NCBI GenBank assembly: GCA_963782195.1
Contig: CAWAIN010000005.1
Coordinates: forward strand, 538,858-602,857
DNA: 64,000 nt
Direction of reading: 5' to 3'
Source: an uncultured Pseudomonadota bacterium
Lineage (GTDB): Bacteria; Pseudomonadota; Alphaproteobacteria; Rhizobiales; Beijerinckiaceae
Below are positions 20,891 through 59,325 of the stretch, in pieces (positions within the stretch are counted from its first letter, which is position 1; the number at the start of each line of letters is the position of its first letter). Position numbers and translations under genes: made by a program. The notes beneath the pieces are model-generated. The model saw only the letters and a program-made list of their open reading frames with translations, did no database searches and had not been told where the DNA came from.

Positions 20891-22027
20891 TCATGCCACC
20901 GGGGCCTGCGTCTTCAGGGTGCGATAGACATAGTCCGCCGCCGGCACATTTCCATCGACTTCCTCGAAAGTCGCGGCGATCGCAGCAACTTTATCGTGGT
21001 TCGGCGACAGGTGGCAGATCGGATCGGTATTCCGCGCATCGCCAGTCAGCGCCATCGCCTGGCAGCGGCAGCCGCCGTAATCCTGATGTTTGCGCGGGCA
21101 CGACCGGCAGGGTTCGACCATCCAGTCGTCACCGCGGTAGGCGTTGAACGCCGGCGCGTTGAACCAGACGTCGGCAATCGAATGATCGCGGACGTTCCAG
21201 AATTCAAGGCCGGGGATGGTTTCCGCGGCATGGCAGGGCAAAACCTTGCCGTGCGGCGTGATATTCAGCGTACGCTTGGCCCAGCCGCCCATGCAGGCTT
21301 TGGGATATTTGGCATAATAGTCCGGCGCGACATGATCGATGACGATCTTGCCCGCATAGAACTTGCGCAGCGCCTCGACCTCAGTCACCGCCTTTTCGAC
21401 CTGCTCCCGCGACGGCATGAGCGCCTGCCGGTTGAGATAGGCCCAGGCATAATATTGCGTATGCGCGATCTCGGCACGCCGCGCGCCAAGTTCGACGGCA
21501 AGTTCCACCATGCGCCCGGCGCGAGCGATATTGGCGCGATGGATGACGGCATTGACGGTTAGCGGAATGCCGACCTCATTGACCCATTTGGCGACATCCA
21601 TCTTGCGGGCGAAACCGCCCTTGTAGCCACCGATCCGGTCAGCTGACTCTGCCTCGGCATCCTGAATCGAAAGCTGGACGTGATCGAGCCCCGCATCGGC
21701 CAGTTCGCGCATCCGCTTTTCGGAGATGCCGACGCCCGAGGTGATGAGGTTGGTATAAAGGCCGACATCGTGGCAGTGCTTGACGAGTTCGACCAGATCA
21801 GGCCGCGACGCCGGTTCGCCACCGGAGAGATGCACATGCAGAACACCGACGGCCGCCGCCTCGGAGAAGACGCGCTTCCAGGTTTCCGTATCGAGTTCCC
21901 CCGCACGCGAATCGAGTTCGATCGGATTCGAACAATAGGGACATGAGAGCGGGCAGCGGTGCGTCAGTTCGGCGAGAACGCCGACGGGCGCAGCAATCGC
22001 TTCCGAGACTTTCTGTGGTGCATTCAT
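20891..22027 (-). CDS. pqqE: PQQ biosynthesis radical SAM/SPASM protein
   Basis: [38 protein letters not shown]-x2-C..GGCRCQA SPASM motif. Confidence 0.96.
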
Positions 22028-22311
22028 AGATCCACCATCCGTTTCGCCGCGAGTTCCGCGAGCAGAGCCCGCACGTCGGTGTCGATCCGCGCGCGGTCCG
22101 CGGCAAACGCGGCGGCGAGCTGATCGACGATCTCGTCTAATGTGGCCTTGCCGTCGCAACGCTTCAAGATTTCGACGGCAACGCCGTTAAGTTTCAAGAC
22201 GCGCTCGGGCGCCATCAAGAGCCATTCGTCGCGCGTTGCATCATGTTTCAGATGCATGCCACGCGGCAAATGTGGTTTCGACTCTGCGTTGACGGCGGCC
22301 GCGTCGCTCAT
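22024..22311 (-). CDS. pqqD: PQQ peptide chaperone
   Basis: [31 protein letters not shown]; translationally coupled between pqqC and pqqE. Confidence 0.92.
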
Positions 22312-23066
22312 GCCGCCCTGCTGCGCGGGGTCGCCACAGTGCCCGGCTCCCAGACGCCCGGCGAACGATAGTTCTCGACGTAGCCGGTCCAGAGCGCGTC
22401 GAGTTGCGTCCAGAGCACATCGCATTTGAACTCGAGTGCCTTGATGACGGCCTGCTGCTGTTCGACGGTTTTGGCGTGCGTCTTGACGAAATCGAGCGCC
22501 CAATCGGCATCACGCTTCGCCTGCGTCGGCCGATAGGAGAAATAGGCCAGCGTATCCTTGCTGACGTAATCGTAATTCGCCAGCATGCCCGACATGCGCT
22601 CGCCGATGATATTCGGCGAGAACAATTCGGTCAGAGATGAGGCGACAGCTTCGACCGGGCTGCGCTCGCGGACAAAGGTGGCATAGGCTTCAACGGCGAA
22701 CCGCGTCGCCGGCAGAATACCCGCGGTCGATTCAACGTAGTCGCGTGGAAAACCGAGACTGTCGGTAAGCTTCAACCAGCGCTCGATGCCGCCATCGCCG
22801 GGTTTAAGTCCATCATGATCTTCGATCCGCTTGCGCCACTGGCGCCGATCCTCGGCGTCGGTCAGGCGCGTCAGGACGATCGCATCCTTGATCGGGATCA
22901 TCGATTGATAAAAGTAGCGGTTCAACGCCCAGGCTTGAATTTCTTCGTATGTACATTTGCCGCTGTATTGGCGGGCGTGAAAGCGATGCTTGTTATGATA
23001 GCGCTCGGCGCCGACTGCACGCAGCGCGGCTTCCAATTCATCCGGGCTCAAAAATTTCTGGCTCAT
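22308..23066 (-). CDS. pqqC: Pyrroloquinoline-quinone synthase
   Basis: YHNKHRFH, WALNRYFYQ, RIEDHDG, RFAVEAY, SLTELFSP, FKCDVLW. Confidence 0.96.
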   Translation of the reverse strand: MSQKFLSPDELEAALRAVGAERYHNKHRFHARQYSGKCTYEEIQAWALNRYFYQSMIPIKDAIVLTRLTDAEDRRQWRKRIEDHDGLKPGDGGIERWLKLTDSLGFPRDYVESTAGILPATRFAVEAYATFVRERSPVEAVASSLTELFSPNIIGERMSGMLANYDYVSKDTLAYFSYRPTQAKRDADWALDFVKTHAKTVEQQQAVIKALEFKCDVLWTQLDALWTGYVENYRSPGVWEPGTVATPRSRAA

Positions 23067-23962
23067 AGTGCGATCTCCATCCCGTCATAAGATATTTCCC
23101 ACCCCGCCGCCTCGGCCTTACTGCGCTCGGGCGAATCCTCAATGAGGACGGGGTTGGTATTATTGATATGCACGAAGATCTTGCGGTGTATATTGAGGTC
23201 GCTCAACCGCGAGAGAGAACCTTTTTCGCCCGTCATCGCCGTATGCCCCATGCGCCATGCGGTCTTGTTCGAGAGGCCGAGTTTGACCATTTCGTCGTCG
23301 GTGAATGTCGTGCCATCGAAAAGCAGAAGATCGGCGTGGCGCAGCTTCTCTTGCAGCTTGTCGGTCACTTCGGCACAGCCCGGGATGTAATAAAACGTCT
23401 TGCCGTTGCCGTTGATTTCGAGACCGACGGTCGTCTCACCTTCGGCGCCGATCTCGACCGATCCGCTTTCAAGATAGAGCGGCACCTTGCCTGGCACAGC
23501 GAAGGGCGTGATACGCAGCCCGATGCCGGTATCGACGGTTTGTCCAAGCTCGACTTCGTTGAATGTAACAAGGTCACGGTTCAGCACGCCGAAAATGTTG
23601 CCGCCGGTAACTTCGGCCAACGTCGTCTTGCTGCCATAGACCGTGAAGCTCTGCTGCTCGCGCAGAGTCAAAAGCCCGGTCAGATGATCGACATCGCCAT
23701 TGGTGACGAAAACCGCGGAGATCGGCGATTGGCGTTTGGCGCCGCGCGGATGCAATTGCGGTGTTGAGATGATCTGCTGGCGAAGGTCGGGCGAGGCGTT
23801 GAGTAACAGCCAATGTTCGCCGTCCGCGCTGACCGCGAGGCTGGACTGCGTCCGCGGCTTGACGCGTTTGTCGCCTTTCCAGGCAAGCTGGCAGACGGGG
23901 CAAAGGCAATTCCACTGCGGGAAGCCTCCCCCGGCTGCTGCGCCGAGGACGATGATCTGCAA
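23063..23962 (-). CDS. pqqB: PQQ biosynthesis protein PqqB
   Basis: LGAAAGGGFPQWNC, RTQSS, NASPDL, DVDHLTGLLTLRE, HINNTNP. Confidence 0.97.
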   Translation of the reverse strand: MQIIVLGAAAGGGFPQWNCLCPVCQLAWKGDKRVKPRTQSSLAVSADGEHWLLLNASPDLRQQIISTPQLHPRGAKRQSPISAVFVTNGDVDHLTGLLTLREQQSFTVYGSKTTLAEVTGGNIFGVLNRDLVTFNEVELGQTVDTGIGLRITPFAVPGKVPLYLESGSVEIGAEGETTVGLEINGNGKTFYYIPGCAEVTDKLQEKLRHADLLLFDGTTFTDDEMVKLGLSNKTAWRMGHTAMTGEKGSLSRLSDLNIHRKIFVHINNTNPVLIEDSPERSKAEAAGWEISYDGMEIAL

Positions 23963-40852: not shown

Positions 40853-40898
40853 AGCATAAGTCCGAAAACGTGAAGCCGTTTTCGGACAATCCGATGCG
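40853..40898 (+). repeat. Intergenic repeat family B copy 2 (abuts the TIGR02300 stop)
   Basis: AGCATAAGTCCGAAAACGTGAAGCCGTTTTCGGACAATCCGATGCG, similar to the reverse complement of 30324-30370. Confidence 0.65.
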
Positions 40899-40907
40899 CT
40901 CAGGTTT

Positions 40908-40962
40908 TTGTTGTGATGCGTTTTCTTTACGCGAACCGGTTCGCACTTCGCTCGAAAACGCT
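40908..40962 (-). repeat. Intergenic repeat family A copy 2
   Basis: Reverse complement matches 14059-14103 at 40 of 45 nt; lies head-to-head with family B copy 2, forming a mosaic. Confidence 0.8.
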
Positions 40963-41068
40963 CTTAATGGCTGCTTGTGGCGGCAGTTTATTGCGTCTAT
41001 ATAGCCGCTCCGCGTCAGCCGAACTGGCACTCAAATCCCACCCAAAGATTTGAGCGGCGCGAAGGTTT

Positions 41069-41144
<76 letters not shown>

Positions 41145-41194
41145 ATTAAATCAAAGACTTATCTGAAAAATCGGCAGAACCTTCCCGCTAGCTG

Positions 41195-44100
41195 TTAATT
41201 AGCTACCCCCATCAGTGGATCGTCATCCTCAAAGGCGGCCTCACTCGCGAAATTATGAAGCGCAGGCCGATGGATCGGATCGGCGCCGATCGTGCCAACG
41301 AGCGCTGTCAGATATTCCGGCGTGCTGATCCGCTCCAGCTCGGCGCGTGCATAGTCCAGCCGGGCGTCGATTCCGAGCCGCTTTGCCTCCTCACGGTGGC
41401 CGGCGCGTGTCAGAAACTCCCTCAGGCTCCGGGTATGGCGGGCCCAGAGCGCCACGTCCCGCTGCTGCTTCGTCGCGAGGCGCTCGCGATACCAATCGCT
41501 CGCGAGCAGCGCCTCGCGAGTGAAGAGCGTCCGTATCTCGGGATCGCTCGCGGTCTTCCCCTCATAGCTTCCCCGCGCCATGATGTGGAGCAGCGCCTTG
41601 AGCGGTGGGCAGGCATCATCGATCGTGCCGTCTGTGAAGTATCCCTCAGCGACGCGCTGCTGCGCCTCCACGATGTTGTTGACGCCATCGGCGAATACCG
41701 CGGGATCCTGAAGTTCGGGTTTGAGGATGTCGTCCGTGAATACGACGGTAGGATTGTCGAAGACGCGTCCGAAGTAGGTGTGCACGAACTTGGCCGTGAT
41801 GCGGTAGCCCAGCCGGCTGGCCAACACCTGCCTTCCGCCGAAGCTATAGTCTTCGAGTTTCTCCAGATGCCCCGCCTCTATCAGTCGTCTTGGGTCCCGC
41901 TCATGCGGAAACAGCCTGCACCAGATCTCCGGAATCAGCAGGCTGATGTCGTGGTCCACACGAAGGTGCGGGCCGATAAAGCCGGCGGCTGAGCTGAAGC
42001 CCCCGTACCCGGTGAGCAGCATCGAGACGAGCGCGTTGTTGAGATCGGCTGTGGTCTGGATAGCGTTGAACGGCCCTTTGGTGAGCGCGCCCTCCGATCC
42101 TGCGCCCGTGGTGCTGGGCGACGTGCCTGTCACCGAGCACACGTAGTCCATGAACAGCTCCGGCAGCTCCTGGTAGTGGATGGGCCCGTAGACGCAGAGC
42201 GGGCGGATGCCTTCCTCCGGCCGGTTGTTCCGCCGGCCCGACAACACGCTGATCACCGGAAACACCACCGATGCTTCGAGCGGAAGGCGGCGATTTAGCC
42301 GCGCGCCCATCTCCGCAATGTAACGGTCACGCGGCCGGGCCATATCGGGCCGGACCTGTAGGTAGCGCGGATTCTTGGTGCGCTTGCCGTCAACGAGCCT
42401 CGGCTCTGCCGAGCAGATCGAATAACCGTCATCGGCGCGCGCCGCGTTCCGAGCCACATGTTCGCGCATCGGGCGCGTGAAACTGTCCTGCACCGCAACG
42501 TCCTCGACGATGCTCTGGCTGTCCGCGTGCGTGAGCGGCTGAAAGTTGGAGGAGAAGAGCCCCGGGCTCGCCATGTCTTCTTCAGTCTGCCTGTCGAGCC
42601 CCGGATGAATGGCATCGTCGGGCCGCTGGAAAAGCCTGAATTCGCAGTTCTGCGCCAACTTGAGGCTCGGGTGCCCTTCATATTCGGCCGGCAGTCCGTC
42701 CAGGTTCTGCGCGGGGACCACGACCGAGGCAGTGATGTCGTCCTCCATCTGCACTTTGTCGGCAGCGACGAAATCCTGTCTCAGTTTGTAGGTCCGCCAG
42801 GCACCGTCCTCCTGGCGACCGATCCGGAGGTAGTTGGCGACGAGCCGCCGTCCCTCGTACTTGAGTTCGTGCCCCGGGGCGCCGTTGATGATGTCCACGC
42901 TGAAATGTTGACGCCAATCCTTGCCCCACTCGGGGCTGTAGAAGCGCTTGATCACGAACACCAGCGCTCGCACGTGGTTCGGAATGCTTTCCAGCCAGGC
43001 GTTGTACTTGGGTGTGAACTCCGCGTTGGGTGTCAGGAGCTTGATCACCGAGCCGAGCGAACGTTCGAGCGACAGGATCGACCGCGAGGGGCCGCCGCTG
43101 TTGCCATCACGCAGATCTGGCAGTCGCGCGTCGGCGTAATCGCGGTCGAAGATTTCTTCGACCAGCGCCATGTCCTCCTCGAAATTGCGCACATGGAACG
43201 ACCCCGGCAGCACCGCATCCACCAGGCTTTTGCTGATCTCCGACTTGCCGCCGCCGGAGACCGTGCAGGGTTTGTGGCAAAAAGTGCCCTCGGGCACCGT
43301 GCCGATCAATCGCCAGCTCGGCGCCCCGCCATACTTGGCCATCCGGACTTTGTAGCCGCTCGGATGAATGTAAATCTGGCCAGGCAGCAGCTTTAGGTGC
43401 TGCGTCTCGCCATGCAGGGTCCACGTAATGTCCTGGCGATGGATGTCTATCTCCATATCCTCGGGCATGTAGTGGATTTCGGAGTAAATCCCGTCGGTGG
43501 CATAGCCCGATGGGTGGAGCTTCGCGCGTTCCCCGAGGAGCGCGAGCACCTCCTTGAATTTGTGCTGCCTGGCGCCATCGAGCCGCATGAGATCTGGGGC
43601 GAAGCGGTCGCCAAGACTAAAGGTCGCGAACGCCAACGCGCCGCCAGCGTGCTCCTCTTCAGCCCCGCCGAACAGATTCGCGCTGTAGCCAATCTGAGTC
43701 TTCACTTCCTTCTTGCAATAGCCGAAGTAATTGTCAGCGAGGATGGTGACCATCACACCATCCATGTCACGCGAGGTGATCTTGAACGGGCGACCCTCGT
43801 TGTAGATCTCGTTTTCGTCGGTCCAGCACATGCCTGCGGCACGCTGAGCCTGCGTGGCCTCGCTCGCGTGCGGGAGGCCAACGTCCTTCTTCTTCAGCCG
43901 CGTAAGATGCGGCGCCAAAATCACGCAGCCGCTGTGGCCCGTCCAGCCGTCCACATCGATCGCAGCGTCATTGGCCGGGAGATAGGGATCGCCGGCATTG
44001 CCGAAAATGCTCTCCACAAAGTCGAGGTTCGAGACCAGGCCGCCGGGGACGAAGTAGCGGATCTCGTTGCGCTTCTCCGGCGAGATCCCCGGCACCGCCG

Positions 44101-44731
44101 GACAGACGAGCGGCCGCAGCAACAGCGAGACCATGGTCTCGACCGGCTCTGGCCAATTCGCAGTAAACGGCAGGCGCAAAAGTTCGGGCGGCGGTCGGAG
44201 CGCCTCCTCAAGCAGGCGCACATAAGTGATGAGCGGCACGCGGGTTTTATCCGCGGGAATTGGAAGCCCGCCCTCAGCTACGTGAAAGACCCCCTGCGTG
44301 GTGCGGCGGTCGTTGACCGGGTTGTGCAAAACTCCATTATCAAGTCGATAGCTTGAGACGAGTTCGTTGTGCCAGGCATCGGCGTTGACCGGAAGCGACA
44401 GCTCCCGAGCGAGCCCATATTGGTCGAGAATGAAGGTCTCCGCAGGCAGGCGTACATACGCTGTGGTTGCGACATCCGCGAGCAGCTTGTCGATGTAGCG
44501 CTGAATTCTCGCGTCGGCGGGGCAAAGATGTTGAGAGAGCAGCCGGGTCTGCTCACGATAGCGCGCGAAGAGGTCGCCCGCCATGTGAAGCAATTCCTGG
44601 TCGCCGTTATCCTCGGGAATCCGGACGCCCATCGCCGCAAGCTTGAGCAGGATCGACCTGATGGCAGCGGATCGCTGCGGCGGAAGGACAGACCCATCCG
44701 CCTTGAGTCCTACTGCGCGTTCGAGCTCCAT
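41195..44731 (-). CDS. Pyrophosphate-dependent phosphoenolpyruvate carboxykinase (PEP carboxytransphosphorylase, EC 4.1.1.38)
   Basis: 1178 aa; NGVLHNP..DRRTT.GVFH, NLDFVESIFGNAGDPYLP.ND, WTGHSGCVILAPHL, ADNYFGYCKKEVKTQ, CHKPCTVSGGGKSEISKSL, SPSTTGAGSEGALTKGPFNA match my recollection of the Propionibacterium/Entamoeba PPi-PEPCK family; GGAGGGAG RBS. Confidence 0.9.
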   Translation of the reverse strand: MELERAVGLKADGSVLPPQRSAAIRSILLKLAAMGVRIPEDNGDQELLHMAGDLFARYREQTRLLSQHLCPADARIQRYIDKLLADVATTAYVRLPAETFILDQYGLARELSLPVNADAWHNELVSSYRLDNGVLHNPVNDRRTTQGVFHVAEGGLPIPADKTRVPLITYVRLLEEALRPPPELLRLPFTANWPEPVETMVSLLLRPLVCPAVPGISPEKRNEIRYFVPGGLVSNLDFVESIFGNAGDPYLPANDAAIDVDGWTGHSGCVILAPHLTRLKKKDVGLPHASEATQAQRAAGMCWTDENEIYNEGRPFKITSRDMDGVMVTILADNYFGYCKKEVKTQIGYSANLFGGAEEEHAGGALAFATFSLGDRFAPDLMRLDGARQHKFKEVLALLGERAKLHPSGYATDGIYSEIHYMPEDMEIDIHRQDITWTLHGETQHLKLLPGQIYIHPSGYKVRMAKYGGAPSWRLIGTVPEGTFCHKPCTVSGGGKSEISKSLVDAVLPGSFHVRNFEEDMALVEEIFDRDYADARLPDLRDGNSGGPSRSILSLERSLGSVIKLLTPNAEFTPKYNAWLESIPNHVRALVFVIKRFYSPEWGKDWRQHFSVDIINGAPGHELKYEGRRLVANYLRIGRQEDGAWRTYKLRQDFVAADKVQMEDDITASVVVPAQNLDGLPAEYEGHPSLKLAQNCEFRLFQRPDDAIHPGLDRQTEEDMASPGLFSSNFQPLTHADSQSIVEDVAVQDSFTRPMREHVARNAARADDGYSICSAEPRLVDGKRTKNPRYLQVRPDMARPRDRYIAEMGARLNRRLPLEASVVFPVISVLSGRRNNRPEEGIRPLCVYGPIHYQELPELFMDYVCSVTGTSPSTTGAGSEGALTKGPFNAIQTTADLNNALVSMLLTGYGGFSSAAGFIGPHLRVDHDISLLIPEIWCRLFPHERDPRRLIEAGHLEKLEDYSFGGRQVLASRLGYRITAKFVHTYFGRVFDNPTVVFTDDILKPELQDPAVFADGVNNIVEAQQRVAEGYFTDGTIDDACPPLKALLHIMARGSYEGKTASDPEIRTLFTREALLASDWYRERLATKQQRDVALWARHTRSLREFLTRAGHREEAKRLGIDARLDYARAELERISTPEYLTALVGTIGADPIHRPALHNFASEAAFEDDDPLMGVAN

Positions 44732-44935
44732 TGCTCCCTCCCATGCCCGGCTCCATTCGGAGTCCGTTAGCAGCGTCTTCCCCCATGAAGCGCCAGCCTA
44801 TTGGGTTTTCTTGATCGAAACCCTGGAATTCCGGAGAATGGCCTTCGGCACGAATACTAGGCGATAATCTTCCTTGCGGGAAAGGCCAGTGCTTGAGGAC
44901 ATGCCAAAGGGTGCGTGCCGCGCTGGCTGAAGCTT

Positions 44936-44992
44936 TTCAATAGCATTGAAGAGATCGTCGATTCGATTCCGTCTGGGGCCCAATTAAATCAA
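44936..44992 (+). repeat. Degenerate att-like copy of the tRNA-Ala(GGC) 3' half
   Basis: 44936-44976 equals 41096-41136 at 38 of 41 nt (three G>A changes), then CAATTAAATCAA identical to 41143-41154; anticodon, T-loop and acceptor are broken, so it is non-functional. Confidence 0.85.
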
Positions 44993-45086
44993 TCAGATAG
45001 AGCACCGACGCGGAACGCTTTGGCGGCCAGCCCGAGGCCAGCTACGCCCGATAGAGTCGCCGCGGCCTTTTCCGGCGGAGTTGGCG

Positions 45087-46061
45087 ATGAAGCGGTCGCT
45101 TCGCATAGCTCTCTATCTTTGCGCCTGGGCGTTGCTTCGAGACGACGCGGGCGCCTGCAGTTTGGTGAAAGTCACCGAACTGCCTTTGATCGAACTCGGC
45201 AATCATTATGCGGTGATGGCCAATGTCGCTGGCCAGCCGCGGCCAATGATCGTCGACACCGGCGCGGCCACGACATTATTGGGCGCGAAGGCGGTGGACG
45301 ATCTCAATTTGAAGGTTGATCACTCTGCGCCGCTGCCCAAGCCCGTTCTCGGGATCGGTCAGACCTCCGCGTCGGTTATCTACCTCAACGTCATCGCCCC
45401 CATTCTCGGATTCGGTGATCTGGTTTTTCACAATCGCAGCACTGTCGTCGCGAGCCTCGACTTCGGCCCGGTGCCTGAGGCCGACGCAGCCGGCATATTG
45501 GGCGACGACATTTTGTCGGACTATGATGTCGAGTTCGATTTTCTGGACGGCGAGCTGACTCTCTATGATGAGTTCGCTTGTTCGGACGCTTTCTTGCCCT
45601 GGACCGGCGCCTATTTCGCCTTGCCCTTTGAGCATCGCGACACCAAGATCATGGTCGATATTTTTCTTAACGGCGAACGAACGCCGGCGATCGTCGATAC
45701 GGGAAACAACGTTTCGTTTGTTTCGCGCATGGCCCCGGCGCTCTGGGGCTCCCTTGCCCATGAGATGAAAAAGACGCGGATGCACTCGACGAGCCCGTTC
45801 AACGGCGGCACGTCGCTGCCGAACCAGCGATATCAATTCGATGAAATCCGGATCGGCGATGACATCTTCCGAGACGAATATATGAAGGTTATCCAGGTTC
45901 AATTGCCTGGCGCTTCGGCAAACCTCGGATTGGATTTTTGGAAACACCGCAAGCTTTGGATTTCCTATCCCAACGACTTCATTTTCGTGTCCGGCATCAA
46001 AGCGAACCCGGTTCTCGCCTATCCCGTCAAACCAGGTACATCATCTGTCGCCAAAAACTGA
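45087..46061 (+). CDS. Secreted two-domain retropepsin-like aspartyl protease
   Basis: Signal peptide; two catalytic motifs MIVDTGA and AIVDTGN; GILGDDIL and NLGLDFW. Confidence 0.82.
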   Translation: MKRSLRIALYLCAWALLRDDAGACSLVKVTELPLIELGNHYAVMANVAGQPRPMIVDTGAATTLLGAKAVDDLNLKVDHSAPLPKPVLGIGQTSASVIYLNVIAPILGFGDLVFHNRSTVVASLDFGPVPEADAAGILGDDILSDYDVEFDFLDGELTLYDEFACSDAFLPWTGAYFALPFEHRDTKIMVDIFLNGERTPAIVDTGNNVSFVSRMAPALWGSLAHEMKKTRMHSTSPFNGGTSLPNQRYQFDEIRIGDDIFRDEYMKVIQVQLPGASANLGLDFWKHRKLWISYPNDFIFVSGIKANPVLAYPVKPGTSSVAKN

Positions 46062-46078
46062 CGCGACGGGCGACCATT

Positions 46079-47047
46079 TCAATCCTTGCCATCTTGAGGA
46101 GGCGCGCCGGGGCCTCGCCGCTGTAAAAAGTCGATCATTCGCGAGGCAATCTCATCGGTCTTCTCGTCTAGGGCAAAATGCCCGGCGTCGAGCAGGTGGA
46201 TTTCGGCATCGGGAAGATCGTGCTTGTAAGCTTCCGCGCCCGGCGCGATGAACGAGGGATCGTAGCGTCCCCATACAACGAGCGTCGGCGGCCTGTGCGC
46301 GCGAAGCCAAGCCTGCCATTTCGGATATGAAGCGACATTGGTGCGATAGTCGTAAAGCAGATCGCCCTGAATCTCCTTTTCGCCGGGACGCGAGAGGACG
46401 GCATATTCATCCGCCCACGTATCGGGATTATAGCGCTCCGGGTTCGGGCTGCCGGCGATATGGCGGTGCTTGAAGTCCTCGAGTGAAACGAAGGTGTCGA
46501 TAACTTCCGGATGTGCCTTCGGATCAGCCCAATATTTGACGATCTTCGCCCATTTGGGGCCCAGCCCTGCTTCGTAAGCATTTGCATTCTGAATCACCAG
46601 CGCCTGCACGCGCTCCGGGTGCCGCAGCATGATGCGGAAGCCGACCGGACCGCCATAATCCTGAAGATAGAAAATGTATTTGTTGATTCCGAGTTGTTCG
46701 AGCAGATCGTTGGTCGTCTGGGCGAGATGGTCGAACGTGTAGGAATAGCGCGACGGCGGCGGCGCATCGCTCTGCCCGAAACTCGGATAGTCCGGCGCAA
46801 TCAGATGATAGCGTGTCGCCAGCAACGGGATCAGCGAATCGAACATTCGCGACGAAGATGGATAGCCGTGCAGCAGAACAATCGTCGGCGCGTTTTTCGG
46901 CCCCGCTTCGCGATAGAAAATGCCGACGCCGCCGACCTCTACCTTATGATACGTGATCGTCGCCGAGGTCGAGGGCAGGAACGCCGCTTGCGCACCCTGC
47001 CCTATGGCCGACATCGCGATGGCCGAAAGAAGATTAAGAAATCTCAT
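46079..47047 (-). CDS. Alpha/beta hydrolase (epoxide hydrolase/haloalkane dehalogenase-like)
   Basis: LLHGYPSSS, APDYPSFGQS, QDYGG Asp nucleophile, DAGHFAL. Confidence 0.9.
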   Translation of the reverse strand: MRFLNLLSAIAMSAIGQGAQAAFLPSTSATITYHKVEVGGVGIFYREAGPKNAPTIVLLHGYPSSSRMFDSLIPLLATRYHLIAPDYPSFGQSDAPPPSRYSYTFDHLAQTTNDLLEQLGINKYIFYLQDYGGPVGFRIMLRHPERVQALVIQNANAYEAGLGPKWAKIVKYWADPKAHPEVIDTFVSLEDFKHRHIAGSPNPERYNPDTWADEYAVLSRPGEKEIQGDLLYDYRTNVASYPKWQAWLRAHRPPTLVVWGRYDPSFIAPGAEAYKHDLPDAEIHLLDAGHFALDEKTDEIASRMIDFLQRRGPGAPPQDGKD

Positions 47048-47105
47048 GTCCGATATCCTCTGATCAGCGTGGAAACTTCGGAATGTTCTCGCGCATTAGA
47101 GAGCC

Positions 47106-48320
47106 TCATTGCGGCCGGCCCTTGCCGGCGACAGCGGCGACGAGATCGATTGCAAGCGCCGATAGCAGCGCCACAGTTCCAATTATAAAAAGCAGGCGGT
47201 AATCGCTGCTGCGCGCGAAGATAAAAGAGAAGCCATATGCCGCGCCAGCCTGCAGGATGGCAAAACTGACAGTAGCCTTACTCCACGCCGCCTTTTGTTC
47301 TTCCGGATGATGCGCGAGCAATTCATGCACGCGCCCCAGCACCAGAGGAGCGATGCCGGGCGTAAACGCGCCAACGACGAAACTCGAAACGATCAGCGCC
47401 GTAGTGCCAAGGCCAAGTGCGGGCAGCGCCACTGCAAGCGCCTGGAGGAAATAGGCAAGGCGTAGCGCCGGTCCGAATCCAGCGCGATCGGCCAGATGAC
47501 CGCTCAGCAATGGTCCCACCATCGCGCCGAGCCCAAACAGCACCCAATATTCCGCGCCGACCTGAACGCCCTCGCCAAGCCCCCGGGCGACGAAATCAAC
47601 GAGGAAAATCATATGCGGCACAAGCCCGGCCGCGTTGAGCGCATATTCGAGATATAGCGCCCGCAGCTTTATTACCTGCCGCGAGCGCCGATGCGGCGGC
47701 GGTGCGACGACGGGGGGCGCCCCCATCGGCCAGCCGCGCCAGGCCCCAATCGTCAGGACGCACGACAACACACCAAGCCCGAGCCATGCTTGCGCTAGGC
47801 CGAGCCGCAGTAACAGCGGCACAAGCGTCCCCGACGCGGCGATGCCGACACCGACGCCCATGAAGATCAAACCGCCGGCCAGACCACGGCGCGCTGCGGG
47901 CAGATGCGGCAGAACCGCTGGGGCGGCGAGAACCATGAGCGCACCGCCCGACAGCCCGGCGACAAAGCGCCAGGCGAAAAACCAGAGAAACGAGATCGGG
48001 AAGGCACACGCGAAAAAGGCCGCCGTGGCCAGGCCCATCATCAACTGCAATGTCAGCGCGACCGAAATTCGCGCTGCAAGCGATCGGCCAAGCACCGCGC
48101 CCGCGAGATAACCCGCGAGATTGGCCGCGCCGAGATAGGCGGCGACCGATGGTTTGAACCAATGCCCGGCGATGATCGCGGGCAACAACGGCGTATAGGC
48201 AAACCGCGCCAGGCCGATTCCGACGAGGCTGGCGCAAAAGGCCGAAAAGGTCGCGCGCCACGGGTTTACGCGCACCGCGTGCATGCGGTGCGCTTTGTGC
48301 CGATCCACCTGCTGGTCCAT
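47106..48320 (-). CDS. YbfB/YjiJ-family MFS transporter
   Basis: GIGLARFAYTPLLP, LAGYLAG, ~12 TM segments; exact start uncertain. Confidence 0.85.
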   Translation of the reverse strand: MDQQVDRHKAHRMHAVRVNPWRATFSAFCASLVGIGLARFAYTPLLPAIIAGHWFKPSVAAYLGAANLAGYLAGAVLGRSLAARISVALTLQLMMGLATAAFFACAFPISFLWFFAWRFVAGLSGGALMVLAAPAVLPHLPAARRGLAGGLIFMGVGVGIAASGTLVPLLLRLGLAQAWLGLGVLSCVLTIGAWRGWPMGAPPVVAPPPHRRSRQVIKLRALYLEYALNAAGLVPHMIFLVDFVARGLGEGVQVGAEYWVLFGLGAMVGPLLSGHLADRAGFGPALRLAYFLQALAVALPALGLGTTALIVSSFVVGAFTPGIAPLVLGRVHELLAHHPEEQKAAWSKATVSFAILQAGAAYGFSFIFARSSDYRLLFIIGTVALLSALAIDLVAAVAGKGRPQ

Positions 48321-48410
48321 TTCCGCCTTCCGAGACTTAGCGAACTGATTGATGGGCGCAAGCTTAGGTGCGTAGACTTATCTTTTAAAATGAATATTTA
48401 TGATATTTGT

Positions 48411-48427
48411 TATCTCTGAATGAGATA
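48411..48427. promoter_or_regulatory. LysR-type binding site (T-N11-A dyad)
   Basis: TATCTC-TGAAT-GAGATA in the AT-rich divergent MFS/LysR promoter. Confidence 0.55.
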
Positions 48428-48439
48428 TACGGGTGCGCG

Positions 48440-49309
48440 ATGGATGTCTCCGATTTGAGAATATTCGAGGCTGTATCCCGCCTCGGCAGCATGAACCGGG
48501 CAGCCGTCGAACTGCACACGGTCCAATCCAATGTGACGGCGCGGATCCGCGCTCTTGAAGAGAATTTGGGCGTCACGCTGTTCCAGCGCCACGCGCGCGG
48601 CGTCGTCATGACGTCAGCGGCAAAACGTCTGTTGCCGTTTGTCGGGCGGATTACAAAACTCGTCAGCGATGCGCAGGCTGCTGCGAGGGACGAAGGCATG
48701 CCAAACGGCATACTTCTTCTTGGCAGTATCGAAACAACGGCGGCGCTGCGTTTGTCGCCGCTCCTGAGCCAGTTCGCCTCCGCCTATCCCAAAGTTAGGC
48801 TCGCGATCACCACCGGAACGACATCGCGCCTTTTGGACGATGTTATCGAATGCCGGCTTGATGGCGCATTCGTCGCCGGACCTCTAAGCCATCCCGATTT
48901 GCATCACGAAACGGTCTTTCGCGAAGAACTTGTGCTGGTAACGCCACGCAATGTCGCAACATTGCAAGACCTCGCGAATGTTCCAGACCTGCGAACCATC
49001 GTGTTTCAGATCGGCTGTTCCTATCGCCAGCGTCTCGAAAGCGTTTTGGCCGATTTGGGGATCATCGTCGCCAAGCCGATGGAATTCGGTTCGCTCGACA
49101 TCATCATCAGTTGCGTAGCGGCGGGCGCCGGCGTGACGTTGTTGCCGAGAAGTGTGGTCGCTACGGCGCAAAAAGACGGCAAGATTTCCGTGCACGACCT
49201 GCCGGCGAAATACGCGCAGACTGAAACGTTGTTCGTGCATCGCAACGACGCTTATCTTTCAAGCGCAATGAAGGCTTTTCTCGACGCTGCGCGATCTCAA
49301 CAAGCGTGA
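48440..49309 (+). CDS. LysR-family transcriptional regulator
   Basis: LRIFEAVSRLGSMNRAAVELHTVQSNVTARIRALEENLGVTLFQR HTH. Confidence 0.95.
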   Translation: MDVSDLRIFEAVSRLGSMNRAAVELHTVQSNVTARIRALEENLGVTLFQRHARGVVMTSAAKRLLPFVGRITKLVSDAQAAARDEGMPNGILLLGSIETTAALRLSPLLSQFASAYPKVRLAITTGTTSRLLDDVIECRLDGAFVAGPLSHPDLHHETVFREELVLVTPRNVATLQDLANVPDLRTIVFQIGCSYRQRLESVLADLGIIVAKPMEFGSLDIIISCVAAGAGVTLLPRSVVATAQKDGKISVHDLPAKYAQTETLFVHRNDAYLSSAMKAFLDAARSQQA

Positions 49310-49325
49310 ACGCTTAAGGCTTTCC

Positions 49326-49361
49326 CAAAAAACAGAGGGCGCCCAATGGGCGCCCTCTCTT
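49326..49361. terminator. Bidirectional terminator between lysR and csbD
   Basis: AGAGGGCGCCC-AAT-GGGCGCCCTCT perfect 11-bp stem with an A-tract on the left. Confidence 0.8.
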
Positions 49362-49378
49362 ATCGACAAAGCAGTCGA

Positions 49379-49594
49379 TCAGATATTCTTGTTAACGTGT
49401 TCGGCCGATTTGTTCACGGCATGCTTCACCGCGTCCTTGGCGTCTCCGACGGCCTTCTGCGTATGGCCCTTCAGCTCCTGCGCGGCACCTTCGGCACGAA
49501 GATTGTCGGAGCCAACGGCCTTGCCGACGCCTTGCTTGACGGAACCGGCGGCCTCGTTCGCGACACCTTTGATCTTGTCAGTCGTGCTGCTCAT
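49379..49594 (-). CDS. csbD: CsbD-family general stress protein
   Basis: [22 protein letters not shown]...EG..QELKG..QKAVG.AKD. Confidence 0.9.
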
Positions 49595-49685
49595 AATCTT
49601 TCACTCCATGGTAACTTCGGAGCGAGGAACGGCACAGGATAAGAATAGTTCCGCAGGTCTGGATTTCGCGGGGGTTACAAATAAT

Positions 49686-53894: not shown

Positions 53895-56060
53895 CTAAGC
53901 CGCCTGCTCCTTCGCCTCTCGCCGGCGGTCGTGCAATATCCATTCGGTGTAGCCGTTCGGCTGTAGACGGCCTTTAAAAATCAGATCCTCCGCCGCCCTG
54001 AAGGCCGGTCCATTAAAGGCTGGCGCCATTGGCTGATACGCGTCATCGCCATCGTTCTGACGATCGACGATCTTCGCCATACGTTTCAGCGTGTCTGAGA
54101 CTTGCGTCTCGTTGACGATACCGTGTTGCAGCCAATTGGCGATATGCTGACTCGAAATGCGCAACGTCGCACGATCTTCCATGCGGCCGACATCGTGGAT
54201 ATCGAGCACTTTCGAGCAGCCAATCCCCTGATCGACCCAGCGCACGACATAGCCGAGTATGCCCTGGCAATTGTTGTCGAGTTCTTCCTGCACCGCATCC
54301 GGCGCGAAATTGCCGCGCGAAATCGGAATCGTCAGCAGATCGGCAAGCTTCGCCGGCGGCCGCGCTCGCAATTCCTTCTGCCGCTTGAGGACATCGACGC
54401 GGTGATAATGCGTCGCATGGAGAACCGCGGCCGTCGGCGACGGCACCCACGCCGTGTTGGCGCCCGAGGTCAGATGCGGAATCTTATCGACCAGCATCGC
54501 CGACATGCTATCGGGCATCGCCCACATGCCTTTGCCGATCTGCGCCCGGCCGGGCAGCCCACAGCGCAAGCCAACATCGACATTCGAATCTTCATAGGCC
54601 GCGATCCATTTCGTCTTCTTCATATCCTCTTTGCGGATCATCGGCCCAGCTTCCATCGAGGTGTGGATTTCATCGCCAGTGCGATCGAGGAAGCCGGTGT
54701 TGATGAAGAAGACGCGATTGGCGGCTGCCTTGATGACGGCCTTCAGATTGGCGCTCGTGCGCCGCTCTTCGTCCATGATGCCCATCTTGAGCGTGTAAGG
54801 CTTCAGGCCGAGAAAATCCTCGACCGCGGCGAAAAGGCGGTCGGCGAGCACGACTTCGTCCGGGCCGTGCATTTTCGGCTTGACGATATAGACGGAGCCT
54901 TTCGTGCTGTTGCGCCTGCCCGTCGCGCGCAGATCGTGGAGAGCGATCAGGCCGGTCACTGCCGCATCGAGCAATGTCTCGGGGATTTGCGCCCCGTCGG
55001 CATCCAGCACAGCGTCAGTCATCATGTGATGGCCGACATTGCGGACAAGCACGAGGCTGCGGCCGGACAGTGACAGCGGCGCGCCGTCTGGCTGGACATA
55101 GCTGCGATCCTCGGCAAGACGGCGCTCGATGGTTTTGCCGTTCTTTTCAACCGTCGCGGAGAAAGTCCCCTGCATCAGGCCGAGCAGGTTGCGATAGAGC
55201 CCGACCTTGTCGGCCGCATCGACCGCGGCAACGCTGTCCTCGAGATCCATGATCGCGGTCAGCGCGGCTTCAATGACAATATCGGAAACTCCAGCAGGAT
55301 CGTCCGCGCCCGTTCTGCTCGCGCGATCGACGACGATCTCGAGATGCAAGCCATTATTACGCAAGAGAATCGCGCTCGGAGCACTGGCCTCGCCGCGATA
55401 GCCGCGAAATTGCGCCGGGTTTTTCAACTCGGCCTCGGCACTATCGGCGAGCTTAGCGACGAGTTTGCCGCCCGTGACGCGATAGGCTGTGACATCCTTG
55501 TGGCTTGCGCCAGCAAGCGGCACCGAGGCATCGAGAAAGTCCCGGCCCCAGGCGACGACCCGGGCACCGCGGATCTTGTTGTAGCCCTTGCCGCGTTCGC
55601 CACCATCGGCCGACGAAATCGCGTCCGTGCCGTAGAGGGCCTCGTAAAGCGACCCCCAGCGCGCATTGGCTGCATTCAAGACGTAGCGCGCATTTGAGAC
55701 CGGCACGACCAGTTGCGGGCCGGGCACCAGCGCAATTTCGTCGTCGACATTTTCGGTCGCGATGGAAAAATCCGGCGGTTCAGGCACGAGATAGCCGATC
55801 TCGCGCAAGAATTTCTCGTAATCGGCGGGATCGAACGGCCGCCCGCGATGGCCGAGGTGATAGGAATTGATCTTCTCCTGAAGATCATCGCGGATCTGCA
55901 ATTGCGCGCGGATACGCGGCGAATATTCGCCGACGAGTTTGCCGAAGCCTGTCCAAAATGTATCAGCGGCAATGCCAGTGCCGGGCAGCACTTCATCGGC
56001 GATGAAATCATAAAGGGTGCGGGCGACCTTAAGACCGCCGACGTCTTGATAGTCACGCAT
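53895..56060 (-). CDS. glcB: Malate synthase G
   Basis: [64 protein letters not shown]. Confidence 0.97.
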
Positions 56061-57662
56061 GGACGGCTTTCTCCTGCATACCAAGTTCCGCCGCCGTGCC
56101 GGCGAATTTGGCGAAGTTCTCTTTAAACAGGCGGACGAGATGGTGCGCCTGCGCCGCATAGGCCTGCGGATCGGGCCACGCGCGCGAGGGATCGAGCATG
56201 TCATCGGGCACGCCTGCCACATGCAGCGGCAGGTGCAGGCCGAAATACGGCTCCTCGCGAAACAACGCTTTATCGAGCGCGCCCGTAAGCGCCGCGCGCA
56301 GCAGCGCGCGTGTATGTGCGATCGAAATGCGCGTGCCGATTCCGTAAGGGCCGCCCGTCCAGCCGGTATTGACGAGCCAGACGTTGGTCTCCTGCTTCGA
56401 CAGATAGTGCATCAGGAGGCGGCCATAGACCTCCGGCGGGCGCGGCATGAACGGCGCACCGAAACAGGCGCTGAAGGTCGCAACCGGCTCCTTGCCCAGC
56501 CCCTTTTCCGTCCCGGCGACACGCGCAGTATAGCCGGAGAGGAAATGATACATCGCCTGCTCGGGCGTGAGCCGCGACAAAGGCGGCATGACGCCAAAAG
56601 CATCCGCCGTCAGCATCACCACATTGCGCGGAACGCCGCCCACGCCGCTCGGTTCAGCATTGGCGATGAAGTGAAGCGGATAGCAGGCGCGCGTGTTGGG
56701 CGTCAGCGAATCATCGTCGAGATCGACGTGGCCATCTGAATCGAGCACGACGTTCTCAAGCACCGTCCCGAAACGATGCGCGGCTGCCCAAATTTCAGGC
56801 TCGGCCTCTTGCCGAAGATTGATGACCTTGGCATAGCAGCCGCCCTCGAAATTGAAGACGCCGGTTTGCGACCACGCGTGCTCGTCGTCGCCGATGAGCC
56901 AACGCTCCGGGTCAGATGACAGAGTCGTTTTGCCGGTGCCGGAAAGGCCGAAAAAGAGCGCCGTATCGCCATCCGGACCGATATTCGCAGAACAATGCAT
57001 CGGCAACACGCCTTTCGCGGGCAGCAGCCAATTCATGACGGTGAAGATCGCCTTCTTCACTTCCCCTGCATATTGAGTGCCGGAAATGACGATCAGCTTT
57101 TGCGCAAACGAAAGCGCGATCGCGGTCGGCGAGCGCAGCCCGAGGGCCGAGGGCTCCACGGAAAGGCCGGGCGCGTGCAGAATGATGTAATCCGGCACAA
57201 AGGTCTCAAGCTCCTCCGTGGCCGGCCGAATGAACATATTGCGGGCAAAAAGCGCGTGCCACGCATTGGTCGTAACAAGCCGGACCCTGATGCGATGCTC
57301 CGGCGCGGCACCCGCATAAAGGTCCTGCGTGAACAGGATCTGGCCTTGCAGATAATTGCGGACCTCGTCGGCGAGCGCCGCAAAGCCAGCCTGAGAAAGC
57401 TTCTGGTTGACGCTGCCCCACCAGATATTGCCGCTCGTTTCGGGCTCATCGACGATAAATTTATCGGTTGCCGAACGGCCGGTGTGCGTCCCCGTGGTGA
57501 CGACGAGCGCACCATCGGCCGAGAGCCTGCCTTCACCGCGCTGAAGCGCCAGCTCGACAAGGGGCGCAGCCTGGAGATTGGCGTGAATGGCCGTGCGCCG
57601 GACAAACCCGTCCCGGCCAGCGCGGCGAGGCTCCCCTCCGCGCGTCGTGTCATTAAATTCAT
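56053..57662 (-). CDS. pckA: ATP-dependent phosphoenolpyruvate carboxykinase (apparent -1 frameshift at ~57591 near the N-terminus)
   Basis: [55 protein letters not shown]; N-terminal frame joins at GAR/AIHANL. Confidence 0.92.
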
Positions 57663-58022: not shown

Positions 58023-59325
58023 TCAGGGGCGCCCGATGGAAAGATATTTGAAGCCCTCGCGGCGCAGTTCATCGGGCGAGTAGATATTGCGCAGATCGAC
58101 GAGGATTGGCTCGGTCAGGAGCGACTTGACGCGGCCGAGATCGAGCGCCCGGAAGGCATCCCATTCGGTGACGATGACGAGCGCCGAGGCATCCTTGCAG
58201 CAGCTATAGGGATCGCCGCAATAATTCAGCTTGTCGAGATAGTGGCGCGCCTGCTCCATGCCTTCGGGATCGAAGGCGTTGACCTTGGCGCCCGCATCCT
58301 GAAGCGCGGTGATGATCGCAATCGCCGGCGAATCGCGCATGTCGTCGGTATTGGGCTTGAAGGTCAGGCCGAGCACCGCAATCGTCTTGTTGCGCACATT
58401 GCCGCCGCACGCGATGAGCACTTTGCGCGCCATTGCGCGCTTGCGCTGGTCGTTCACCGCCGCGACCGTCTCGACGATGCGGATCGGCGCGCCATAATCC
58501 TGCGCCGTCTTGATCAGGGCCTGCGTGTCCTTGGGGAAGCAGGAGCCGCCATAGCCGGGGCCCGGCGTGCAGAAATTTTGAGCCGATGCGATTGTCGAGG
58601 CCGATGCCGCGCGCGACCTCCTGCACATTCGCGCCCACTTCCTCGCAGAGGCTCGCGATCTCGTTGATGAACGTGATCTTGGTCGCGAGGAAGGCGTTCG
58701 CCGCATATTTGGTGAGTTCAGACGTGCGGCGGCTGGTGACGAGAATCGGCGCCTGGTTGAGGTAAAGGGGGCGATAGACCTCACGCATCACCGCTTCGGC
58801 GCGCTTGTCCTCGACGCCGATGACGATGCGATCCGGGCGCTTGAAGTCGGCGATTGCCGCACCCTCGCGCAGGAACTCGGGATTTGAGACGACGGCGAAT
58901 TCGGCATCCGGCCGCACTTCGCGAATGATGCGCTCGACCTCATCGCCGGTGCCGACCGGCACGGTGGATTTCGTGACGATGACCGTGAAGCCATTGATCG
59001 CCGCGGCAATATCGCGCGCCGCCTGATAGACATAGGTGAGATCGGCATGGCCGTCGCCGCGCCGCGACGGCGTGCCAACTGCGATGAACACAGCCTGCGC
59101 CTCGCGCACCGCCGAGAGATCATCGGCGAATGTCAGCCGGTTCTGGCGGACGTTGGTCATCACCAGTTCGGCGAGGCCGGGCTCATAGATTGGCATCTTG
59201 CCGGATTTCAGCGCCTCGATCTTCGCGGGATCGTTGTCGATGCAACAGACATCGTGGCCGAAATCCGCAAAACAGGCGCCCGAGACCAGGCCCACATATC
59301 CCGAGCCCACCATAGCGATTTGCAT
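58023..59325 (-). CDS. ugd: UDP-glucose 6-dehydrogenase (apparent +1 frameshift at ~58558)
   Basis: VGSGYVG, IAVGTPS, KSTVPVG, SNPEFLREG, ELTKYAAN, then GYGGSCFPKD and LTFKPNTDDMR in the second frame. Confidence 0.92.

Follow-up and report, generated by a model that had tools for sequence, protein, structure and literature searches.

The window analysed here, a stretch of 64,000 nucleotides of contig CAWAIN010000005.1, contains a gene on its minus strand whose predicted product is a pyrophosphate (PPi)-dependent phosphoenolpyruvate (PEP) carboxykinase (PEPCK). With a probability of about 0.85, it is an accessory gene that was acquired from a Gemmatimonadales-like donor, encodes a functional enzyme, and supplements the PEP carboxylase (Ppc) of its host. 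Judged by homology, the protein is a new member of the already known and characterised family EC 4.1.1.38, and the gene call is an annotation fix. The features of the region are shown in Table 1.

Table 1 Features of the PPi-dependent PEPCK locus and its surroundings (window coordinates)
Feature	Coordinates	Strand	Residues	Evidence or remark
tRNA-Ala(GGC)	41069..41144	+		ARAGORN; Rfam tRNA 60 bits; integration site
Direct repeat copy 1 (att-like)	41091..41156	+		tRNA-Ala 3' half and ~12 nt beyond
Terminator-like hairpin and T-run just past PEPCK stop	41174..41188	-		weak: site count equals shuffle expectation
PPi-dependent PEPCK CDS (PEP carboxytransphosphorylase, EC 4.1.1.38)	41195..44731	-	1178 aa	ORF and homology
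Motif SPSTTGAGSEGALTKGPFN	42065..42121	-	871-889
P-loop-like motif TVSGGGKSEISKS	43226..43264	-	490-502
Motif ADNYFGYCKKEVKTQ	43694..43738	-	332-346	K340, K341, K344 family-conserved
Motif NLDFVESIFGNAGDPYLP	43976..44029	-	235-252
Presumed promoter and 5' leader, ~140 nt upstream of PEPCK start	44732..44872	-		blastn
Direct repeat copy 2 (att-like)	44931..44992	+		tRNA-Ala 3'-half remnant at far insert end
Older variable segment at tRNA-Ala	44993..49685			comparison with G074 and G093; absent from G074
Retropepsin-like aspartic protease	45081-46061	+		Pfam/NCBIfam
Alpha/beta hydrolase	46079-47047	-		Pfam/NCBIfam
YbfB-type MFS	47106-48320	-		Pfam/NCBIfam
LysR regulator	48407-49309	+		Pfam/NCBIfam
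ATP-dependent pckA, second PEPCK of the genome	56053..57660	-		stop overlaps glcB start (56053-56060)

The PEPCK frame begins with ATG, is uninterrupted and has the ends given in the earlier note, all four of whose quoted motifs were found in it; plus-strand translation of the same interval gives many stops. A phmmer search against the PDB returned 8e1u_A from P. freudenreichii ('PPi-dependent PEPCK', E = 0, 1215 bits, query residues 25-1152 on chain residues 11-1128) and 6k31_A from A. israelii ('AiPEPCK', E = 0, 1210 bits, query residues 19-1152 on chain residues 13-1150), with collinear matches over practically the complete chains, corresponding to 96 % of the query. The membership of the PPi-dependent PEPCK family that had been proposed from the motifs is thus upheld by full-length homology, including that to the P. 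freudenreichii enzyme, and by identity at 106 of 106 family-conserved positions, a position being counted as conserved when 26 or all of the 27 diverse members compared (33-83 % identity) share it. Family-wide conservation was also used as the criterion for the active site; it extends to S492, G493, G495, K496, S497, E498 and K501 in TVSGGGKSEISKS and to H361 downstream of ADNYFGYCKKEVKTQ, and the motifs of the family that are kept include YCKKE...EEEH, SGGGKSE and STTGAGSEGALTKGPFN. The KK-20 residues-H spacing of K340/K341...H361 is one that we take to resemble K243/K244...H264 of rat cytosolic PEPCK, and the KK...H at ADNYFGYCKKEVKTQ and H361 may presumably correspond to the metal and substrate site of GTP-PEPCK, which is a lead only. 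The C-terminal ~22 residues, beyond ...GADPIHRP, form a lineage-specific tail that differs from the other copies in the genus. Scans of the protein against a copy of Pfam-A and against NCBIfam gave no match at E<=0.01, the ATP- and GTP-PEPCK families included. Close homologues are named 'phosphoenolpyruvate carboxykinase (diphosphate)' by JGI/IMG, with PF26300, and 'hypothetical protein' in NCBI records, the latter label arising in NCBI pipelines because NCBIfam has no model for PPi-dependent PEPCK.

The protein could have kept this fold while drifting towards the use of polyphosphate, a nucleotide or another keto-acid, with a change of phosphoryl donor or of activity that would make EC 4.1.1.38 wrong for the clade. 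Such drift is quite improbable, although biochemical characterisation covers only three lineages (review PMC8100219) and the protein, at ~55 % identity to the nearest representative cluster, lies in an uncharacterised Gemmatimonadales/Polyangiaceae/Methylovirgula clade, since it matches both solved PPi-dependent PEPCKs over its full length at E = 0, retains all family-conserved positions including KK...H and SGGGKSE, and has neither gained nor missing domains. As a PPi-dependent PEPCK, the ~130 kDa protein would share the full-length architecture of the solved P. freudenreichii and A. israelii enzymes and would interconvert oxaloacetate + PPi <-> PEP + CO2 + Pi; its PPi specificity is assigned by homology, and we infer its direction of reaction in vivo from homology only.

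The PEPCK gene and a tRNA-Ala(GGC) gene converge, their 3' ends facing each other with 50 nt between the tRNA and the stop codon, and this tRNA gene adjoins aroA in every genome of the genus, which is Methylovirgula by submitter labels. A direct repeat of 46-60 nt (46 nt at 89 % identity in a repeat search, the extension being read from the sequence) bounds an insert of 3.8 kb, in which the PEPCK gene is the sole ORF within 41145-44930. The insert is absent from relative G074, where the order is aroA-tRNA-Ala-bioB and the tRNA gene directly abuts bioB. In G093, the closest relative, which has no PPi-dependent PEPCK, the site is occupied by another segment, of 1.3 kb, and the second repeat copy is partly kept; because this genome carries other cargo between the same repeats, the tRNA-Ala site may be a hot spot of integrase-less cassette exchange. 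The insert and the variable segment next to it gave no integrase or other mobility gene, and the alternative segment of G093 gave no integrase. The att-like repeat was seen in this genome alone, and none was found around two other tRNA-adjacent copies (L025 at tRNA-Arg-CCG and L105 at tRNA-Arg-ACG). The arrangement is like that of tRNA-gene-integrated genomic islands in its position at a tRNA 3' end, the flanking 3'-half repeat, its absence from the site in relatives and the foreign phylogeny of the cargo, but it is unlike them in its length of only 3.8 kb, its single cargo gene and its lack of an integrase, and in that genomes other than this one carry the PEPCK cargo at non-tRNA sites.

None of rpsA, cmk, aroA, bioB or the genes for the protease, hydrolase and MFS was syntenic around 81 related PEPCK loci, and this lack of shared synteny led to the finding that, elsewhere in the genus, the 3.6-kb PEPCK block occupies five or more different contexts. 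The homology block delimited by blastn (41260-44872) recurs in these contexts with the upstream stretch included, so that the presumed promoter and 5' leader may move together with the gene. This stretch contains a small hairpin, GGGTTTC...GAAAACCC. Promoter and terminator scans performed no better than shuffles, and an Rfam search near the PEPCK gene gave no riboswitch or other RNA family besides the tRNA, and none in the 5' leader.

Homologues of the PPi-dependent PEPCK occur in ~18 of 31 genomes of the genus, in 2 of 81 genomes (1 of 53 genera) sampled from the family, and in 1 of 301 genomes (1 of 254 genera) sampled from the Alphaproteobacteria, a distribution which, with the NCBI 'hypothetical' labels, agrees with the earlier description of the enzyme as patchily distributed and often unannotated. 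In a maximum-likelihood tree the genus forms a clade (100/100) whose sister is a MAG of the Gemmatimonadales (99/97). This clade falls inside the Gemmatimonadales, whose copies are themselves nested in Polyangiaceae; the donor was therefore likely a member of the Gemmatimonadales, as far as a tree in which many tips are MAGs of uncertain binning can indicate. Among these tips, L023, labelled 'Gemmatimonadales', is near-identical to a copy on an alphaproteobacterial chromosome, and L040 equals L041 across two phyla. The PEPCK gene is under purifying selection (dN/dS 0.10-0.14 against seven copies of the genus, and 0.13 between the window gene and Gemmatimonadales L098). Its codon usage deviates mildly, is shifted toward the donor clade and is no outlier: GC3 is 0.778 (90th percentile; genome mean 0.72, sd 0.045; donor-clade mean 0.89), and among genes of >=2.4 kb the distance from mean codon usage ranks at the 94th percentile. 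The preference for TAC, GAG and CGG noticed earlier by eye is weakly borne out among 1800 genome ORFs (0.60, 88th percentile; 0.69, 91st percentile; and 0.32, 86th percentile, respectively), with only a mild deviation. The foreign origin suspected at that time now has much stronger grounds than codon bias, namely how the gene is distributed, where it falls in the tree and the tRNA-flanked insert in which it lies.

That the gene is instead ancestral, was lost nearly everywhere else in the Alphaproteobacteria, and lies beside an incidental tRNA-flanking repeat is most improbable. The clade of the genus is monophyletic and the gene is widespread within it, which speaks for ancestry, but the enzyme is confined to a single genus in both the family and the class samples, the clade lies several well-supported nodes deep within Gemmatimonadales, the loci vary between genomes with the tRNA-Ala site empty in G074 and differently occupied in G093, and GC3 is raised toward the donor clade. 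Under the preferred reading of acquisition, the gene would have entered the genus once, from a Gemmatimonadales-like donor, and would then have been retained by purifying selection at loci that vary among genomes.

The genome also carries an ATP-dependent pckA, in which a 1-nt deletion at ~57591, ~24 codons in, is seen in this genome alone when compared with six relatives. Other single-base frame breaks occur in the same assembly, in ugd at ~58560 and in pyc, which is split into two frames; because of these, the pckA break may be a consensus error. Among 21 good genomes of the genus, four have both enzymes, seven have only the PPi-dependent PEPCK, four have only ATP-dependent pckA and six have neither. 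Mutual exclusion of the two enzymes in the genus was considered and rejected on these counts (4 with both and 6 with neither). It is possible, if doubtful, that the PPi-dependent enzyme is the only working PEPCK of the strain and has its role in gluconeogenesis, where it replaces the frameshifted PckA, and not in anaplerosis: the pckA deletion is unique to this genome, a third of the good genomes (7/21) dispense with ATP-dependent pckA while keeping the PPi-dependent enzyme, and in extracts of Methylotuvimicrobium the conversion of malate to PEP was credited to MDH and PPi-dependent PEPCK (PMC6860931). Against this stand the breaks in ugd and pyc, with which the pckA break is possibly a consensus error, and the lack of any pattern of exclusivity among the good genomes. 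The reading preferred here remains that of an accessory enzyme which supplements Ppc.

The host is a methanol-using soil bacterium. It was correctly described as PQQ-producing, with pqqB, pqqC and pqqD/E-like genes at 20891-23962 of the window and five PQQ alcohol dehydrogenases in the genome. The earlier suggestion that the PPi-dependent PEPCK might replace PEP carboxylase, for example in a serine cycle, fails on the genus-wide occurrence of ppc: it is present in this genome (C2:760076-762856), and PF00311 matches occur in 21 of 21 good genomes, on which ground this candidate role was rejected. A cluster at C4:853244-856404 comprises mtkA (equivalog NF010647, 710 bits), mtkB and the gene of an mcl-like lyase, and because RuBisCO accompanies them, a role in the serine cycle is only one option. 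Of the partner genes named in the earlier note, those for Ppc, PPDK and H+-PPase are present, and no PFK of any kind was found in this genome. The H+-PPase extends to 31 of 31 genomes across the genus. Malic enzyme, pyk and a soluble ppa were also found, and the presence of ppa argues against a strictly PPi-conserving economy. The PPi-dependent PEPCK would add a near-equilibrium, PPi-linked bridge to a PEP-pyruvate-oxaloacetate node that would already be served by Ppc, malic enzyme, PPDK, pyruvate kinase and the possibly broken ATP-dependent PckA. In the direction of carboxylation, the phosphoryl energy of PEP would be conserved as PPi, from which the genus-wide H+-PPase could generate proton-motive force, and in the direction of decarboxylation the enzyme would supply PEP for gluconeogenesis paid for by PPi rather than ATP.

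Compared with the P. freudenreichii enzyme (8E1U), the window protein is collinear over nearly the whole chain, has the same motifs and falls in the same size class (~1130-1180 aa), but ~25 residues at each of its termini are unshared, and a Gemmatimonadales-type gene in an alphaproteobacterial host, an aerobic methylotroph, is set against that of a fermenter of the Actinomycetota. The A. israelii enzyme (6K31), also from the Actinomycetota, is homologous over the full length, with a few short indels in the alignment. ATP- and GTP-PEPCKs (EC 4.1.1.49 and 4.1.1.32) catalyse the same overall reaction bar the phosphoryl donor, whereas the window protein is about twice as large and has no Pfam or NCBIfam match to those families. 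PPi-PEPCK1-3 of E. histolytica (Chiba et al. 2015) belong to the same family, and a PPi-based central metabolism is their proposed setting (cited in PMC8100219); likened by description, Entamoeba lacks ATP- and GTP-PEPCK and uses PPi-PFK, whereas the window genome has an ATP-dependent pckA (possibly broken) and no PFK. For Methylotuvimicrobium alcaliphilum 20Z, PPi-dependent PEPCK has been invoked in the conversion of malate/OAA to PEP (PMC6860931). This organism, again likened by description, is also a C1-utilising aerobe with PPi-linked enzymes (PMC6860931), but it is a gammaproteobacterium with the RuMP pathway and PPi-PFK, whereas the window organism has RuBisCO and mtkAB-mcl and no PFK.

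A more far-reaching reading, in which a single-gene Gemmatimonadota cassette was wired into a prior, PFK-less PPi economy of H+-PPase and PPDK and became the main or, in this strain, the only functional PEPCK, is rather unlikely; if true, PEP-OAA interconversion would be coupled to proton-motive force, and not to ATP, in an aerobic acid-soil methylotroph. Among the 254 genera sampled, Methylovirgula is apparently the sole alphaproteobacterial genus with a PPi-dependent PEPCK, and its gene, apparently from a co-habiting soil phylum, is maintained by selection in over half of the genomes of a genus in which H+-PPase is universal and PFK apparently lacking. With strains that have the PPi-dependent enzyme only, the ATP-dependent enzyme only, both, or neither, the genus is a tractable natural experiment, usable to ask what benefit a PPi-linked PEP-oxaloacetate step brings to an energy-limited methylotroph, and for correcting metabolic models of C1 cycling in peat and forest soil.

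The gene for pyrophosphate-dependent phosphoenolpyruvate carboxykinase (PPi-PEPCK) in the window is a single-gene, tRNA-flanked acquisition of probable Gemmatimonadales origin that is kept in an alphaproteobacterial methylotroph genus. An earlier note, made from the sequence alone, gave the ends and length of the open reading frame (ORF) exactly; the strand is minus, and the plus-strand reading of the same interval contains stops throughout. The four motifs picked out in that note were located at residues 235-252, 332-346, 490-502 and 871-889. The protein had no match in the local Pfam-A copy or in NCBIfam, and for this reason its homologues are named 'hypothetical protein' in the NCBI annotation; at JGI they are named 'phosphoenolpyruvate carboxykinase (diphosphate)', with a precomputed PF26300. 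A phmmer search of PDB sequences returned two matches, both with E=0 and both collinear across the whole chain, 8e1u_A 'PPi-dependent PEPCK' (1215 bits, query 25-1152, chain 11-1128) and 6k31_A 'AiPEPCK' (1210 bits, query 19-1152, chain 13-1150), and an exhaustive HMMER search against 1.84 billion cluster representatives gave 2648 related clusters. In an alignment of 27 diverse full-length members, 33-83 % identical to the window protein, 106 columns held the same residue in at least 26 of the 27 sequences, and at every one of these 106 the window protein matches the consensus. The dN/dS ratio was 0.10-0.14 against seven copies from the genus; comparison with the sister copy from Gemmatimonadales (L098) gave 0.13. 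The family match, conserved columns and low dN/dS together show that the gene is intact, constrained and a bona fide family member; the enzyme assignment in the earlier note is thus correct, and the window protein adds one more member to a known enzyme family with solved structures. Specificity for PPi is predicted from this homology. The 20-residue spacing of K340/K341...H361, with E before H, mirrors K243/K244...H264 of rat GTP-PEPCK, and this comparison suggests, as a lead, the same metal and substrate site.

Features of the PPi-PEPCK locus and of its genomic setting (window positions unless a contig is named)
Feature	Location	Strand	Details
PPi-PEPCK ORF	41195..44731	minus	1178 aa, ATG start
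Conserved residues kept, first group			K340, K341, K344, H361, S492-G493-G495-K496-S497-E498, K501
Conserved residues kept, second group			D664/D665, R703/D705, R789, R834, S871/S873
Conserved residues kept, third group			E880, T884/K885, N889, H927/D928
tRNA-Ala(GGC)	41069-41144		3' end 50 nt from PPi-PEPCK stop codon
Direct repeat copy 1	41091-41156		tRNA-Ala 3' half and ~12 nt past it
Direct repeat copy 2	44931-44992		89 % identity over 46 nt, plus extension
pqqB (Lactamase_B_2), pqqC (PQQC family), pqqE-like gene	20891-23962	minus	pqqE-like gene 422 aa, radical-SAM/SPASM
mtkA (equivalog, malate-CoA ligase beta), mtkB (alpha), malyl-CoA-lyase-like HpcH/CitE protein	C4:853244-856404	plus	
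ATP-pckA (TIGR00224)	56053-57660	minus	break ~57591
UDP-glucose 6-dehydrogenase (ugd)	58023-59325	minus	two frames, break ~58560
Pyruvate carboxylase (pyc; TIGR01235)	C4:280086-283530	minus	model 1-936 and 931-1142, different frames

Beyond the genus PPi-PEPCK is very rare: it was found in 2 of 81 genomes (1 of 53 genera) at the level of the family and in 1 of 301 genomes (1 of 254 genera) at the level of the class, and beyond these more than 550 species genomes encode relatives. The closest relatives outside the genus are from Gemmatimonadales (78-83 % identity), followed by Polyangiaceae (65-76 %) and Planctomycetota (~61 %). The donor phylogeny proposed in the earlier note was carried out as a quick 82-row and a careful 46-row tree rooted on distant representatives, and the genus clade (100/100) falls inside Gemmatimonadales, where it is sister to one Gemmatimonadales metagenome-assembled genome (MAG; 99/97) and lies several supported nodes deep; Gemmatimonadales are in turn nested in Polyangiaceae. 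The GC3 of the gene is 0.78 in the window genome and 0.79-0.88 in the other genus copies, between the host genome mean of 0.72 (sd 0.045) and the Gemmatimonadales average of 0.89, values that fit partial amelioration and explain the enrichment in TAC, GAG and CGG codons noted earlier by eye; the direction of that enrichment was right, and its extent reaches only the 86th-91st percentiles among 1800 ORFs of the genome. The comparison genomes are mostly MAGs with visible binning errors. One 'Gemmatimonadales' contig of 3.9 kb (L023) hardly differs from a copy on an alphaproteobacterial chromosome (L022), two identical PEPCKs (L040/L041) are filed one under Acidobacteriota and one under Gemmatimonadota, and the copy from a 'Methylocella' MAG (L089) groups with Gemmatimonadales, apart from the Methylovirgula clade.

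The direct repeats derived from tRNA-Ala enclose 3.8 kb in which PPi-PEPCK is the only gene. In one relative (G074) the order is aroA, tRNA-Ala, bioB with no insert between them. The closest relative (G093), with flanks of ~90 % nucleotide identity, has no PPi-PEPCK anywhere in its genome, and its slot by tRNA-Ala (L107, G093:C1 4319-5620) holds another segment of 1.3 kb encoding one 332-aa secreted protein, beyond which the junction of tRNA remnant and aspartic protease is as in the window genome. This suggests exchange of cargo at a single site. No integrase was found in the insert, the adjacent variable segment or the alternative segment of G093. A homology block at 41260-44872, comprising ~140 nt of upstream sequence and the gene without its last ~22 codons, is shared at 82-88 % identity with ~17 further genomes of the genus, where it sits in five or more different contexts. 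Two of these place it against the 3' end of a tRNA, Arg-CCG (L025) and Arg-ACG (L105); no att-like repeats were found at these two copies. After ...GADPIHRP the C-terminal ~22 codons (41195-41260) of the window gene read ALHNFASEAAFEDDDPLMGVAN, which differs from the ARGRPGPEARLGVEARGMSQAAGTAGGSV shared by most genus copies and so places a cassette recombination boundary within the 3'-terminal part of the ORF. A sequence of 60-75 nt in the gap between aroA and tRNA-Ala (40897-40973) is repeated elsewhere in the genome (e.g. C4:956949, C2:96476, C3:142554 and C2:383556) and in relatives at 84-92 % identity, and resembles a small dispersed element of the REP/MITE type.

The window (C5:538858-602857) belongs to a genome of 3.12 Mb with 60 % GC in six contigs, and several genomes of the same GTDB genus correspond to records with the submitter label 'Methylovirgula sp.' (L024, L025 and L026, matching G090, G094 and G088). 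The description of the organism as PQQ-producing is borne out by a PQQ operon, in which the pqqE-like gene is possibly a pqqD-E fusion, and five PQQ alcohol dehydrogenases are encoded. A sixth copy (C5:250232-251848, plus strand), with several stop codons and frame changes, is likely a pseudogene. The mtkA-mtkB-mcl-like cluster and the large subunit of a form I RuBisCO (C4:675066) mean that both serine-cycle-type and CBB genes are present; isocitrate lyase, malate synthase G and pyruvate kinase are also encoded. Among the genes that the earlier note had linked with such an enzyme, PEP carboxylase (ppc, with a malic enzyme gene directly after it), serine-cycle-type genes (the mtkA-mtkB-mcl-like cluster), PPDK (TIGR01828, 1356 bits) and a membrane H+-PPase are present, the last together with a soluble ppa, and no PFK, PPi-dependent or of any other type, was found in the genome. 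Three genes are broken in this assembly. In pckA, whose stop overlaps the start of glcB (malate synthase G, 53895-56060) by 8 nt (56053-56060), a 1-nt deletion ~24 codons after the ATG is unique to the window genome against six genus relatives; in ugd a 1-nt insertion that G093 lacks cuts the Pfam central domain at 57 of 94 positions; and the split in pyc reflects a frameshift or else an indel of the assembly. With three such breaks in the few dozen genes looked at, residual indel errors from long-read assembly appear a likelier cause than gene decay.

In the genus, all 21 genomes with a completeness of 90 % or more encode ppc and H+-PPase, and the PEPCKs are accessory, with both types in four genomes, the PPi type only in seven, the ATP type only in four and neither in six. 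The data thus do not support a replacement of PEP carboxylase by PPi-PEPCK, the example given in the earlier note. The seven genomes with the PPi type only show that it is able to serve as the sole PEPCK-type enzyme of a genome; they are no proof that it covers all need, because six genomes have no PEPCK. PPi-PEPCK would add a reversible PPi-linked step to a pre-existing PPi economy, and an energy-conserving PPi link to H+-PPase may reasonably be proposed. The genus carrying the gene stands alone among the 254 sampled genera of its class, and the added value of the finding is evolutionary and physiological.
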